Positions 3,352 to 25,054 of a stretch of 36,476 bases of DNA are shown one piece after another (position 1 is the stretch's first letter; every line of letters begins with the position of its first letter). The stretch is from contig JBBTXM010000013.1 in assembly GCA_038062255.1 (NCBI GenBank), positions 1-36,476 on the forward strand, in the 5' to 3' direction. The notes below the pieces were generated by a model, which worked only from the letters and a program-made list of their open reading frames with translations, did not search any database and was not told where the DNA came from. The translations under genes and the position numbers were made by a program. This DNA is from Patescibacteria group bacterium. Its GTDB lineage: Bacteria > Patescibacteriota > Minisyncoccia > UBA11713 > 2-01-FULL-45-33.

Positions 3352-3561
3352 ATGAAAACTATAACTATTCCAAAAAGAGTAATCAAAAATGACGATATTG
3401 TTCTTGTTCCCAAAAAGGAATACGAGAAGCTTTGGAATTTTTGGGCGAGCGCAGAATTTTTGACTAAGAGAGACAAAAAATCCATAGAAAAAGGTTTTCA
3501 AGAAATAAAAAATGGAAAATTTTTCAACTCCAGAGAAGTCAAAAAAGCACTGGGATTATAG
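3352..3561 (+). CDS. Putative antitoxin of the adjacent RelE/ParE toxin
   Basis: This 69-aa ORF lies immediately upstream of, and overlaps, a RelE/ParE-like gene. I recognise no family for it; the call rests on position only. Confidence 0.5.
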   Translation: MKTITIPKRVIKNDDIVLVPKKEYEKLWNFWASAEFLTKRDKKSIEKGFQEIKNGKFFNSREVKKALGL

Positions 3562-3796
3562 TCTTTCGGGCCAAGCTCTAAAAAATCTTAAGCGTTTTCC
3601 AAAGCACGAACAAAAACGCATTTTCAGAGTTTTAGAAAATATGAAATCAGATTTGTTTGGAGGAGATACAAAACCCATTCAAGGTGAAATAAATCTCTAT
3701 CGCAGAAGAGTTGGCGACTATAGAATTTACTTCAGGCCTATTTTAGAACAGAAAATTTTCTGTATTCCAAGTATTATTAGAAGACAGAGTCATTAA
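3512..3796 (+). CDS. RelE/ParE-family type II toxin (mRNA interferase-like)
   Basis: The product contains WDYSLSGQALKNLKRFP...LYRRRVGDYRIYF, which matches the RelE/ParE core (..yRlRvGdYRiiY..). The only in-frame start is the ATG at 3512, which gives a 50-nt overlap with the antitoxin ORF. Confidence 0.75.
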   Translation: MENFSTPEKSKKHWDYSLSGQALKNLKRFPKHEQKRIFRVLENMKSDLFGGDTKPIQGEINLYRRRVGDYRIYFRPILEQKIFCIPSIIRRQSH

Positions 3797-8531: not shown

Positions 8532-8606
8532 GCTCTCATCGTCTAGCCTGGTCTAGGACACACGGTTCTCATCCGTGGAACACCGGTTCAAATCCGGTTG
8601 AGAGCG
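8532..8606 (+). tRNA. tRNA-Glu (anticodon CUC)
   Basis: The cloverleaf folds by hand: acceptor GCTCTCA/TGAGAGC, anticodon stem CACGG/CCGTG with loop TTCTCAT, and T-arm ACCGG-TTCAAAT-CCGGT. No CCA is encoded. Confidence 0.9.
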
Positions 8607-8608
8607 CA

Positions 8609-12894: not shown

Positions 12895-12940
12895 ATTATT
12901 TGTTAAATTTCTAATAAATAGTTTCTAATAATTTTGGCTG

Positions 12941-13024
12941 TGCCGAGGGGGAGATTTGAACTCCCACACCCTTGCGGGTACTACGCCCTGAACGTAGCGT
13001 GTCTCCCAATTCCACCACCTCGGC
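12941..13024 (-). tRNA. tRNA-Leu (anticodon CAG), class II
   Basis: The reverse complement folds as a cloverleaf: acceptor GCCGAGG/CCTCGGC, anticodon stem CTACG/CGTAG with loop TTCAGGG, a long variable arm, and T-arm GGGAG-TTCAAAT-CTCCC. Confidence 0.9.
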
Positions 13025-14632: not shown

Positions 14633-14847
14633 CAAATGATTAAATTTACTACCGCTGTAAGAGAAAATATAACCGCTAATACAATTGTAGCCCAAAATAG
14701 AATTTTTTCCAAGCCCCGCTTGGACCTGTAAATTTGGCCAGAGCCTCCAAAAGAAGCGCCTAGGCCGGTGCCTTTTTGCTGCAATAAAATCGCTCCAATT
14801 AAGAGCAAAGACACGATTATTTGTCCCCAAAAGAGTAGAGATTGCAT
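14632..14847 (-). CDS. secG: Preprotein translocase subunit SecG
   Basis: The product reads MQSLLFWGQIIVSLLLIGAILLQQKGTGLGASFGG.. from the ATG at 14847. The listed TTG at 14883 is a less likely start. Confidence 0.85.
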   Translation of the reverse strand: MQSLLFWGQIIVSLLLIGAILLQQKGTGLGASFGGSGQIYRSKRGLEKILFWATIVLAVIFSLTAVVNLII

Positions 14848-14889
14848 TGATTCTAGACTAGCACTTATTATGTTTTGGGTCAATTAAAA

Positions 14890-14921
14890 CCAGAAAATCC
14901 GCCCAATGGCGGGTTTTCTGG
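14890..14921 (-). terminator. Hairpin plus U-tract terminating the upstream small RNA
   Basis: On the minus strand, CCAGAAAACCCGCC pairs with GGCGGAUUUUCUGG (14 bp, one mismatch) and is followed by UUUUAAUU. The stem includes the encoded CCA of the RNA. Confidence 0.6.
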
Positions 14922-15106
14922 TGTGGATCGAGGGGGAGTTGAACCCCAAAAAGCAAACTGGCTAGGATGCTCCCAGAACCCTCTGGAACTCGACCCTCGT
15001 CCACTAAATTAGCTTATCAAAATGTTTACAAAAACGACAAAGGACTCCGTTAAAGAGCCCTTTGGAGCGCCAGAAGTTCTATTCATAGCACCCTAGCCAG
15101 TCTTAT
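14919..15106 (-). ncRNA. Unclassified structured small RNA with a tRNA-like (tmRNA-TLD-like) 3' domain
   Basis: It has its own promoter and terminator, the T-arm GGGG-UUCAACU-CCCC, a 3' end ..GAUCCACACCA, and a 15-bp long-range helix (15101-15087 with 14971-14957). That helix has a G.U pair only when read on the minus strand. See findings. Confidence 0.6.
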
Positions 15107-15111
15107 TTTCC

Positions 15112-15139
15112 ATTGTACTCTTTATATTATTGCTGTCAA
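15112..15139 (-). promoter_or_regulatory. Sigma70-type promoter for the small RNA
   Basis: On the minus strand, TTGACA (15139-15134) is followed by a 16-nt spacer and then TACAAT (15117-15112). Confidence 0.55.
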
Positions 15140-15157
15140 TAGTTGGTGTGGATAAGA

Positions 15158-16465
15158 TTAGGACAAAGTTTTTCTGTGCGATTTTCTATAGTGCTTTATC
15201 GCGAATCTATGGGCTTCGGAGTCCAGGTTCAATAACAAATTTCTAAGGGGCGAGGGGATAGCGTTTAACGGCATGGGGTCTTTTTTGTCGGAAATATAGA
15301 TATGGTCGCCAATGTGTTTTTTATTTTTGGTTAAAGCGATGATCTTAACCTCACCCCCTCGTACTGCATTTAACTGCTGTTTCCCGCCGTCGACTAAAAT
15401 AACTTCCGGTAACGGCCATTCTTTATGCGAGAGCCTCCTACTAATTATTTCTTTGAGCATTGCTACGTCGTTTGCCCCGGTAACGGTTTTTATTTTAAAA
15501 ATTCTGTATAAATCTTTTGCCGGAGCGCCGTCGATAAATACCACCATCGAGCCGTAGGCATATTTTCCTTGGATATTGGCTATGTCGTACGCTTCTATTC
15601 TTTTTATATTTTCGATTTTTAAAATTGACTCGAAGTGGCGCAAAGCCTTTTGGGATTCCGCAATATTGTCTTTCGATACTATTTCTTTATGCGCGAAAAC
15701 TTTTTCCAAAGCGCGGATTTGATTGCGGATTTTCCCAGCCTCCTCGTATTTTTGTGCGGACGATAATTTTTTCATTTCTTTTTTGAGGGTTTTCAATAGA
15801 GATTTATTTTTGCCGGTGAGAATTTTTTTTATTGAAGAGATGTTTGATTTGTAAACCTCACCCCCTCGTTCCCCCTCTCCTTCGTAAGGAGAGGGGGAGG
15901 GGGGAGAGGATATCATTCCCTTCTCCTTACGAAGGAGAAGGGTTTGGGATGAGGTTAAGCAACAAAACCCCAAACACTTCCCAATTCTTGCGTTAAGACA
16001 CAGGTTTTTATGCACCCTTTTACATGTGCAATAGGGAAAAGCCCGGCGAAGAAGTTTTAAAACAGATTTTATTGCCCCACCGTCTGTAAATGGGCCTATG
16101 TAATCTGGGCCATTTGGGGTCTGGTGAGTTAGGTATATTCTGGGGTATTCTTCTTTTGTAAATGCGGCGAAAAAATATTGCTTGTCGTCGCGCATTAAAA
16201 CATTGTATTTGGGCGAGTGTTTTTTTATAAGTTCAGATTCTTTGATAAGCGCTTCTGTTTCTGAATTTAAGATTTCCCACGAAACGGCCGAAGCTTCTTT
16301 CAGCAAAGACTTAGTTTTGAGGGAAGCTTGATTTTTTTGGAAATACGAATTTAGGCGGGCTTTTAAATTATTCGCTTTGCCCACGTATAAAATTTTGCCC
16401 TTAGAATTTCTGAAAAAATAGACTCCGGGAGATTGGGGCGCTTTTTGTTGCATTTTTACCGGCAT
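15158..16465 (-). CDS. uvrC: Excinuclease ABC subunit C, short form lacking the C-terminal (HhH)2 domain and carrying an in-frame palindromic insert
   Basis: It has a GIY-YIG domain (GVYFFRNSKGKILYVGKANNLKARLNSYF), a UVR motif (KYEEAGKIRNQIRALE) and an endonuclease domain (RIEAYDIANIQG..LVDGGKQQL). It stops just after RFAIKHYRKSHRK. Confidence 0.9.
   Translation of the reverse strand: MPVKMQQKAPQSPGVYFFRNSKGKILYVGKANNLKARLNSYFQKNQASLKTKSLLKEASAVSWEILNSETEALIKESELIKKHSPKYNVLMRDDKQYFFAAFTKEEYPRIYLTHQTPNGPDYIGPFTDGGAIKSVLKLLRRAFPYCTCKRVHKNLCLNARIGKCLGFCCLTSSQTLLLRKEKGMISSPPSPSPYEGEGERGGEVYKSNISSIKKILTGKNKSLLKTLKKEMKKLSSAQKYEEAGKIRNQIRALEKVFAHKEIVSKDNIAESQKALRHFESILKIENIKRIEAYDIANIQGKYAYGSMVVFIDGAPAKDLYRIFKIKTVTGANDVAMLKEIISRRLSHKEWPLPEVILVDGGKQQLNAVRGGEVKIIALTKNKKHIGDHIYISDKKDPMPLNAIPSPLRNLLLNLDSEAHRFAIKHYRKSHRKTLS
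15854..15955. repeat. GC-rich nested-palindrome element (MITE/RPE-like) inserted in frame in uvrC
   Basis: The terminal inverted repeat is AACCTCACCCC (left) with GGGATGAGGTT (right). Two internal perfect hairpins are present: CCCCCTCTCCTT-CGT-AAGGAGAGGGGG and CCCTTCTCCTT-ACG-AAGGAGAAGGG. The 102 nt equal 34 codons. Confidence 0.8.
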
Positions 16466-24964: not shown

Positions 24965-25054
24965 GGAGGGTTCGCATAGCGGTCTAGTGCGCACGCTTGG
25001 AAAGCGTGTAAGGTGTTACAGCCTTCGAGAGTTCGAATCTCTCACCCTCCACCA
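24965..25054 (+). tRNA. tRNA-Ser (anticodon GGA), class II, with encoded CCA
   Basis: The cloverleaf has acceptor GGAGGGT/ACCCTCC, anticodon stem CACGC/GCGTG with loop TTGGAAA, a long variable arm and T-arm GAGAG-TTCGAAT-CTCTC, followed by ACCA. Confidence 0.9.

Follow-up and report, generated by a model that had tools for sequence, protein, structure and literature searches.

A 36,476-nucleotide contig from a Patescibacteria group bacterium (JBBTXM010000013.1, positions 1 to 36,476, assembly GCA_038062255.1), referred to here at its full length as the window, carries between uvrC and secG a candidate small RNA gene whose 3' end resembles a tRNA. The window is ordinary core chromosome, encoding penicillin-binding proteins, MraZ/MraW, a Mur ligase, a class II aminoacyl-tRNA synthetase, and RNase J, as well as a family-5 solute-binding protein, SecG, UvrC, ClpP, UvrA, GroES/EL, DnaG, RpoD, and three tRNAs, with no SmpB gene in these 36 kb; the surroundings of the RNA gene are core chromosomal genes and not a mobile island. 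The uvrC gene occupies positions 15158-16465 of the minus strand, and the RNA gene lies on the same strand within a block of DNA that runs from the uvrC stop codon to the ATG of secG (14848-15157) and is made up of a promoter, the RNA, a terminator, and a 40-nt spacer.

Transcription of this gene would be driven by a sigma-70-type promoter (15112-15139, minus strand), in which the -35 box TTGACA (15139-15134) and the -10 box TACAAT (15117-15112) are separated by a 16-nt spacer and match the consensus at 11 of 12 positions; a gene for RpoD is present in the window, and the start site is inferred to lie at about 15106-15104. At the other end, an intrinsic terminator (14886-14922, minus strand) is formed by an outer stem (14922-14914 / 14897-14889), an inner GC stem (14912-14899), and the U-runs that follow; it contains a CCA motif and folds, outer stem included, at -23.9 kcal/mol (z -5.85). 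Both signals had been described in a first-pass annotation made from the letters of this DNA alone, and both are borne out, the promoter at the same positions (15139-15112) and the terminator-like hairpin with an outer stem that carries it to 14922/14889. The predicted primary transcript is approximately 190-215 nt long, bounded by this strong sigma-70 promoter and the intrinsic terminator.

The 3' 73-86 nt of the RNA constitute an irregular tRNA-like module with a canonical T-loop, a 12-bp acceptor branch, a long D-stem closed by a tetraloop, and no anticodon arm. Specifically, the T-arm (14933-14947, minus strand), evident in the sequence and in model alignments, consists of a 4-bp stem, GGGG/CCCC, and the loop UUCAACU, the T-loop of the E. 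coli transfer-messenger RNA (tmRNA). It is followed by the 3' acceptor strand CUCGAUCCAC (14923-14932, minus strand) and preceded by a D-arm-like hairpin, CCAGA-GGGU-UCUGG (14973-14986, minus strand), of 5 bp and a tetraloop, which can be extended to 7 bp (14988-14971). The interval between the D-arm and the T-arm measures only 23-25 nt and holds a 5-bp stem, a 12-nt loop, and a UUU linker in place of an anticodon arm. The T-arm had been reported at 14947-14933, and the gene had been described as one for an RNA read from the minus strand that is tRNA-like at its 3' end; these two claims withstood the analysis unchanged.

The acceptor stem of the module can be built in two ways. Two imperfect copies of a 7-nt unit, GGACGAG (15002-14996) and GGUCGAG (14995-14989), stand in tandem in the 5' acceptor region and give the 3' strand CUCGAUCCAC two partners. 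In register (i), GUGGA and CGAG (14996-15004, minus strand), which overlap the first copy of the repeat, pair as GUGGA:UCCAC and CGAG:CUCG, giving 9 bp with a bulged A14928, a G-C pair at position 3:70, and a 3' tail ACCA whose discriminator is 14922 and whose CCA is 14921-14919. In register (ii), the more tRNA-like of the two, GGGUCGAG (14989-14996, minus strand), which contains the second copy, pairs with CUCGAUCC (14932-14925) over 8 bp that sit flush on the 4-bp T-stem, so that a 12-bp branch of the rare type termed 8/4 results; its pairs are G1-C72, G2-C71, G3.U70, U4-A69, C5-G68, G6-C67, A7-U66, and G8-C65, the discriminator is A73 (14924), and the module from G14996 to A14924 is exactly 73 nt long. 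When the interior is held the same, the two registers are isoenergetic (-29.0 kcal/mol for register (i) vs -28.5 for register (ii)), and the isolated 73- or 78-nt segment takes the four-arm cloverleaf of register (ii) as its minimum-energy fold (-30.2 kcal/mol, z -2.56).

Several earlier statements about the acceptor stem need revision. The sequence GUGGACGAGGG had been named as the only partner of the 3' acceptor strand, which no longer holds, and the pairing CGAGGG:CCCUCG attributed to it cannot fully form beside the T-stem, of which C14933 is the last base; only CGAG:CUCG fits. The statement that pair 3:70 is G-C is correct in register (i) and incorrect in register (ii), where G.U stands together with A73, and one argument that had been raised against charging with alanine is thereby removed. 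Likewise, the likeness of the 5' part to tmRNA 5' ends is lost in register (ii), in which GGGUCGAG is the acceptor strand itself, and the encoded CCA (14921-14919), previously read as a free end, lies at the base of the terminator stem in the primary transcript. G3.U70 is a selective mark within the loci fetched for this study: 11 of 11 tRNA-Ala carry it, compared with 2 among the 207 distinct tRNAs of other kinds, and the GGG...UCCA acceptor ends are shared by tRNA-Ala genes of Patescibacteria. In one of its two isoenergetic registers the module carries the alanine identity set (G3.U70, A73).

As a whole, the 186-nt RNA is predicted to fold at -76.6 kcal/mol, compared with -53.4 +/- 4.4 kcal/mol for 200 shuffled sequences (z -5.29; 0 of 200 as good), whereas the opposite (plus) strand folds at only -58.3 kcal/mol (z -3.6). 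Stability beyond that of shuffled sequences, together with this asymmetry between strands, argues for a structured RNA that is read from the minus strand. The 5' ~100 nt of the transcript form a stable hairpin domain, and the extreme 5' end is tied to the would-be anticodon-arm position of the module by a long-range helix of 15-17 bp, designated H1, in which AGACUGGCUAGGGUGCU (15087-15103, minus strand) pairs with 14955-14971 (minus strand). A 15-nt helix between 15101-15087 and 14971-14957 had been noted before; it is confirmed, reaches a length of 17 bp in the fold of minimum energy, and corresponds to a 23-nt, 83% inverted repeat (I2). An alternative, rod-like pairing of GAACUUCUGG with CCAGAGGGUUC, also noted before, is likewise confirmed; in the rod fold the D-arm hairpin pairs instead with leader bases at about 15080-15071, and on its own the 3' strand of H1 forms the 5-bp stem (14972-14968 : 14955-14951) with the 12-nt loop mentioned above. 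As claimed, H1 and the acceptor helix cross. All fold energies given here refer to nested structures, and a fold with both H1 and the acceptor stem is a pseudoknot that lies outside them; the U-rich linker from H1 to the T-arm, at 9-11 nt and ~50 Å, is by our estimate just long enough to span a helix of 15-17 bp.

Two further features of the leader accompany these helices. An 11-bp hairpin, Hp1 (15038-15064, minus strand, with a tail to ~15028), was found both in the minimum-energy fold and in a scan for terminators; it holds a UAA in its loop, is followed by UCGUUUUUGU, and is itself terminator-like, so that a short RNA of ~75 nt from the same promoter, ending at Hp1 and UCGUUUUUGU, is possible. 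Additionally, complementary motifs of the form CCAGA(R)/(Y)UCUGG are shared by the leader (15071-15077), the two arms of the D-like hairpin (14981-14986 and 14973-14978), and the two arms of the outer terminator stem (14914-14921 and 14890-14897; all positions approximate, minus strand), and several mutually exclusive pairings are therefore possible.

The first-pass annotation had found that the RNA matches no tRNA and no canonical tmRNA, and the tests applied here agree: the predicted RNA does not qualify as a tRNA, and it is probably not a tmRNA of canonical or permuted form either. No Rfam family reached its gathering score in the window except at the three tRNAs. The best sub-threshold match, obtained with permissive filters over 94 nt, was to the selenocysteine tRNA, tRNA-Sec (RF01852; 23.9 bits against a gathering score of 47, E 0.0038), and its alignment covers register (ii), the hairpin CCAGA-GGGU-UCUGG as a long D-stem with a tetraloop, and the 4-bp T-stem, leaving the anticodon and variable arms unmatched. 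The module is nonetheless no tRNA-Sec: apart from the score below 47 bits, it has A73 instead of G73 and lacks both a UCA loop and a long variable arm. The second-best score belonged to the tRNA-like structure (TLS) of Tymovirus (RF00233; 21.1 bits against 40), and mascRNA scored 14.6. The general tRNA model (RF00005) did not give the 29 bits that it demands and was outscored within its clan by tRNA-Sec, and the 'anticodon' loop would have 12 nt, not 7.

The tmRNA models and ARAGORN gave a similar picture. The standard tmRNA model (RF00023) matches the T-arm alone (12.5 bits against a gathering score of 47), and the alpha, beta, and cyano tmRNA families were absent among the matches listed, which show the best overlapping match per tRNA/tmRNA clan and could hide weaker ones. 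ARAGORN called no tmRNA, whether run on the window, run with its thresholds lowered, or run on constructs in which the 5' acceptor strand had been moved to the 5' end so as to give the standard order, and it found no tRNA for the module at the default threshold or with plain -ps; at -ps80 and -ps60 it made two implausible low-score calls, one of them a 73-nt 'tRNA-Gln' lying within the leader, the other an 86-nt 'tRNA-Pro' shifted by ~5 nt relative to the module. The segments are also arranged differently from those of a permuted tmRNA gene, in which the 3' strand of P2, the T-arm, the 3' acceptor strand, and CCA are followed by an intervening sequence and then by the 5' acceptor strand, the D-loop, the 5' strand of P2, and the coding sequence (CDS). 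Here a P2-like 5' strand is followed by an open reading frame (ORF), the 5' acceptor strand, the D-arm, a P2-like 3' strand, the T-arm, and the 3' acceptor strand. The tRNA-like domain of tmRNA has a 7/5 branch and an unstemmed D-loop; in the present module the branch is 8/4, a stem of 5-7 bp capped by a tetraloop forms the D region, and G3.U70 with A73 occurs in register (ii) only. No equivalents of the tmRNA pseudoknots PK1-PK4 were seen, in folds that included no dedicated pseudoknot search, and the RNA is, as had been pointed out, about half the usual tmRNA length.

The closest likeness is to the allo-tRNAs, which were first found as false positives of the tRNA-Sec model, have been reported from Clostridia, Proteobacteria, and Acidobacteria, and combine a 12-bp acceptor branch (8/4 or 9/3) with a tRNA-Sec-like long D-stem and tetraloop (Mukai et al., 2017, PMC5389517). 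Some allo-tRNAs carry G3:U70 and are alanylated in E. coli, while irregular ones are inactive in translation and have been proposed to be regulatory or to be linked to mobile or toxin-antitoxin elements (PMC5389517). The module shares with them the 8/4 branch in register (ii), register (i) offering instead 9 bp with a bulge and then the 4-bp T-stem; it also shares the long D-stem with tetraloop that aligns to the tRNA-Sec D-arm, G3.U70, and the sub-threshold match to tRNA-Sec. Its branch, its D-stem, and its best model match together place it closer to RNAs of allo-tRNA type than to the tRNA-like domain of tmRNA. It differs in lacking a long variable arm and a 6-bp anticodon stem with a 7-nt loop, in having instead a 5-bp stem and a 12-nt loop complementary to its own leader, in forming the 3' part of a structured transcript of ~190 nt, in occurring in Patescibacteria, and in having no toxin-antitoxin system or transposon adjoining it.

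Other tRNA-shaped RNAs were compared as well. With tRNA-Ala the module has in common G1-C72, G2-C71, G3.U70, A73, and a canonical T-loop, and it departs from tRNA-Ala in its missing anticodon arm, its irregular D-arm, its 8/4 branch, and the silence of the RF00005 model. YrlA and the B. cereus tRNA-Other are bacterial tRNA mimics (PMC5389517). Together with the viral TLS (Tymovirus, RF00233) and mascRNA, they resemble the module in being tRNA-shaped outside decoding. However, the acceptor of the Tymovirus TLS is pseudoknotted and the ends of YrlA are closed, unlike those of the module, and all scores against such mimics are sub-threshold.

Taken together, these data suggest, with a probability that we place at roughly 0.45, that the locus is an independently transcribed, lineage-specific small RNA gene with an irregular tRNA-like 3' module, which would make its product an accessory, non-decoding tRNA mimic of Paceibacteria-type Patescibacteria. 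In such a gene the 12-bp branch would be recognised by the enzymes of tRNA maturation, RNase P would cut 5' of G14996 (or of G15004), and the 3' trailer would be removed such that CCA is exposed or added. The product would be a mimic of 73-86 nt, possibly charged, most plausibly with alanine; the ~100-nt leader would stay attached to it via H1, or would antagonise its folding or otherwise regulate it, and alternatively the leader may hold the RNA in the rod form of the nested minimum-energy fold. An accessory RNA of this allo-tRNA or irregular-tRNA kind might act as a regulator, a decoy, or an aminoacyl carrier, and would not be the tmRNA of the organism.

Should the RNA be expressed and processed in this manner, the known range of irregular 8/4 tRNA-like RNAs would come to include the Candidate Phyla Radiation, and the locus would provide a tRNA mimic that has an alanine-type acceptor, lacks a decoding arm, and is made from a precursor whose leader pairs with its body. 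Such an architecture would inform the question of how tRNA genes give rise to tmRNA-like RNAs and to regulatory RNAs derived from tRNAs, and would offer a compact test case for the recognition of non-canonical substrates by RNase P and alanyl-tRNA synthetase. For a single orphan sequence, this importance is potential rather than demonstrated.

Searches for relatives of the RNA covered genomes, metagenomes, viruses, plasmids, and proteins. With the RNA as query, nhmmer found in 2.0 Mb of fetched loci only the RNA itself (L001, from the same population) and a weak match to a tRNA-Leu T-arm, and a single-sequence covariance model of the cloverleaf returned only tRNAs, at 21 bits or less, from 0.98 Mb of mostly Patescibacteria loci. 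A scan of genome contigs by UvrC alignment yielded 80 loci, all at 47% identity or less, and eight UvrC relatives of 64-74% identity that were looked up all proved to be without the RNA. In metagenome contigs, a pattern scan (GGGTCGA..T-loop..ACCA) gave only ordinary tRNAs and coding sequence among the matches listed, the pattern being poorly selective in that GGGTCGA is a common tRNA 5' end, and three scans of viral contigs gave chance matches only, the gap range of the first having excluded the query itself. Searches with blastn returned nothing from phages and only terminator-like 35-nt matches from plasmids, and a six-frame pseudo-protein query, directed at miscalled ORFs lying over homologous RNAs, had no match among 5.8 billion proteins. 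The nearest relative of this UvrC in the database is only 74% identical, which indicates that the lineage is poorly sampled, and an exact look-up of the 71-aa SecG returned no record. The absence of homologs from these collections is weak evidence.

The UvrC of the window is 100% identical to a protein from a metagenome-assembled genome of a Patescibacteria group bacterium, and its next relatives belong to Paceibacterota and Giovannonibacteria. In five of the seven closest relatives examined (UvrC identity 64-74%; P0004, P0006, P0009, P0005, and P0007, at loci L082-84, L086-87, L218, and L219), uvrC is separated from secG by 0-5 nt, and in the other two (L085 and L220) the junction holds unrelated insertions. 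Since uvrC in relatives either abuts secG or is followed by unrelated DNA, the ~310-bp block 15157-14848 is on this comparison an insertion specific to one lineage, at a site that has taken up DNA more than once. Three different insertions are thus known at this junction across related lineages, namely L085:3594-4643, which holds two small opposite-strand ORFs of unassigned function, L220:2814-3041, which holds an opposite-strand ORF cut by the contig end, and window 14848-15157.

The block also contains an exact 10-nt direct repeat, ATCCACACCA, one copy of which (15144-15153, minus strand) lies directly after the uvrC stop codon and upstream of the -35 box, while the other (14928-14919), 225 nt away, comprises the 3' acceptor end and CCA of the RNA. 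We estimate that a 10-mer repeat would arise somewhere in 480 nt with ~10% chance, and the significance of this one is uncertain. An integrase att site or target-site duplication was considered as its origin and rejected, on account of this chance and of an orientation and position that do not suit islands targeting tRNA genes; a miniature inverted-repeat transposable element with H1 as its terminal inverted repeats was likewise rejected, since the tRNA-like module would straddle the boundary of the element.

Several of the results above weigh against an accessory tRNA mimic. Firstly, among nested folds the full transcript has its energy minimum in a rod that lacks the acceptor stem, and when the acceptor is forced, nested folds reach only -68.9 kcal/mol for register (i) and -62.4 kcal/mol for register (ii), the latter being unable to contain H1, compared with -76.6 kcal/mol for the rod. 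Secondly, the tRNA-likeness rests on sub-threshold scores (tRNA-Sec 23.9/47, Tymovirus TLS 21.1/40, tmRNA 12.5/47), and without a long variable arm and a long anticodon stem with a 7-nt loop the module is not a bona fide allo-tRNA. Thirdly, no homolog was found in any collection searched, and the helices are accordingly without support from covariation and the function without support from conservation. Finally, the RNA gene is absent from the uvrC-secG site in all seven nearest UvrC relatives examined, and a young or decaying acquisition is therefore possible.

This last point leads to the main sober rival, a doubtful explanation in our estimate but the one to be taken most seriously, in which the locus is a relic in decay. 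It would be an irregular tRNA or allo-tRNA-like gene turned pseudogene, or part of an acquired fragment, perhaps still transcribed and without function. Among allo-tRNAs, inactive pseudogenes whose stems are disrupted have been described (PMC5389517). The restriction of the gene to one lineage, at a junction that holds unrelated insertions in L085 and L220, would suit such an origin, as would the tandem duplication of 7 nt that the acceptor strand carries, what may be a duplication of CA before the CCA, and the lack of a usable anticodon arm. Against it stand the near-consensus promoter, the intact terminator, a 15-bp helix that is perfect and includes a strand-specific G.U pair, all four arms of the cloverleaf, and the z-score of the fold (-5.3), because decay would be expected to erode such features first.

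An unlikely explanation is that the RNA is the 5' leader or attenuator of the operon formed by secG and the gene for the solute-binding protein, acting in cis through a terminator that is read through conditionally, possibly in a manner coupled to translation of an ORF. The minus strand between the RNA terminator and secG (window 14847-14890) holds no promoter-like site, and since the insertion, expression of secG and of the downstream solute-binding protein may for that reason depend on read-through. The ORF in question, MNRTSGAPKGSLTESFVVFVNILIS (15009-15086, minus strand), begins with AUG, has 25 codons as had been reported, is rich in Phe, Val, Ile, and Leu, ends in FVVFVNILIS, and is preceded by a Shine-Dalgarno-like GGGUG inside H1; the terminator-like nature of Hp1, which lies within it, and the recurrence of the CCAGA/UCUGG motif across leader, D-arm hairpin, and terminator would also fit regulation of this type. 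However, no antiterminator could be found: the 5' arm of the terminator is unpaired in every truncation that mimics co-transcriptional folding or occupancy by a ribosome, and the terminator forms in all full-length folds. An attenuator was rejected on this ground, as neither truncated nor full-length folds hold a structure that excludes the terminator. Furthermore, relatives have secG directly behind uvrC with no leader, and an attenuator leaves the T-loop, the 12-bp branch, and G3.U70 unexplained.

Less probable still is a non-canonical two-piece analogue of tmRNA. The first-pass annotation had raised a two-piece RNA; in the tmRNA form of this reading, RNase P would free a tag-coding 5' piece and an alanine-charged piece that remain joined by a P2-like helix and take part in trans-translation with SmpB. 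The two-piece tmRNAs of Alpha- and Betaproteobacteria and Cyanobacteria offer a parallel, as the present precursor could be cut by tRNA-processing enzymes into two base-paired RNAs, with H1 at the site of P2 and with the polarity of P2, its 5' strand running away from the tRNA-like module and on into the ORF region. The combination of acceptor and T-arm without an anticodon arm, and of G3.U70 with A73 in register (ii), is that of the tRNA-like domain of tmRNA, and the UAA in the loop of the stable hairpin Hp1 recalls that of tmRNA helix 5. The family also tolerates rearrangement, as permuted tmRNAs and CDS-less tmRNAs demonstrate; the latter, reduced to a tRNA-like domain of ~65 nt, are known from a phage (DS6A), jakobid mitochondria, and some plastids (Nawrocki, Petrov, and Williams, PMC11915505), and the module falls in the same size range of 65-75 nt.

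Other evidence speaks against it. The segments follow the order a-b-a'-b', which is no circular permutation of tmRNA, the transcript has its two acceptor strands together at the 3' end, and the CCA end is not internal. The 8/4 branch and the stemmed D-arm contrast with the 7/5 branch and unstemmed D-loop of tmRNA, the pseudoknots PK1-PK4 are not recognisable, and neither the tmRNA models, which see the T-arm alone, nor ARAGORN, even with constructs in standard order, recognise the RNA. An Ala-Ala end occurs in no frame, as had been stated for the ORF, the frames ending in ...NILIS*, ...QRAL*, and ...DKLI*. Patescibacteria moreover carry standard tmRNAs, with 5252 in 6765 genomes or 0.78 per genome, the same as in other phyla dominated by metagenome-assembled genomes (PMC11915505, Table S2), and the RNA is therefore unlikely to replace tmRNA; these standard tmRNAs and the absence of the gene from close relatives render the two-piece option improbable. 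In its boldest form, with RNase P splitting the transcript into an alanine-charged, anticodon-less 8/4 mimic and a ~100-nt partner bound through H1, the 310-bp cassette, acquired in one Patescibacteria lineage, would give rise to a non-circularly-permuted two-piece tmRNA analogue or a tethered aminoacyl carrier or regulator, and we regard such an outcome as a long shot.

The remaining suggestion, of negligible weight, is that the locus is a gene for a small protein, with the structure incidental to the AUG ORF, or a known rod-shaped RNA such as 6S or signal recognition particle RNA in keeping with the rod-like minimum-energy fold; the 25-codon ORF is probably not a gene, its peptide having no homolog in 5.8 billion proteins, its Shine-Dalgarno-like sequence being buried in H1, and its hydrophobic tail being too short for a membrane helix, and the 6S and signal recognition particle models were rejected because neither gave a match even at E<=10 with lax filters. 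Two further candidates were set aside, an intron-containing tRNA on the basis of the ARAGORN runs and a duplication of tRNA-Leu(CAG) because the similarity is confined to CCCCCUCG and the T-arm.

In the course of the metagenome searches, a near-identical 73-nt element (GGGTCGACTCGAAATCGACTTGTCC...GGGTTCGAATCCCACCCTCTCCGCCACCA) was found in at least nine unrelated contigs (L125, L131, L140, L164, L174, L175, L183, L206, and L211). It has a T-arm and ends in CCACCA, and may represent a tRNA-like RNA, whether a permuted tmRNA's acceptor piece or one of another kind.

Elsewhere in the window, the UvrC protein is short, at 435 aa, as it is in all relatives (403-510 aa), and matches the GIY-YIG, UVR, and RNase H-like endonuclease domains. 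UvrC usually has ~600 aa and a C-terminal helix-hairpin-helix region that this protein seems to lack. A 94-aa ORF (window 3512-3796, plus strand) upstream of mraZ gives a borderline match to ParE toxins (23.2 bits, cut-off 23), and at a distance of 11 kb it was not linked to the RNA. The three tRNA genes of the window lie at 8532-8607, 12940-13024, and 24965-25054; CCA is encoded in that for tRNA-Ser(GGA) and not in those for tRNA-Glu(CUC) and tRNA-Leu(CAG), and post-transcriptional addition of CCA must therefore exist in the cell. The tRNA-Leu(CAG) gene, downstream of the genes for SecG and the solute-binding protein, is syntenic in several relatives (L003, L008, L010, and L082).

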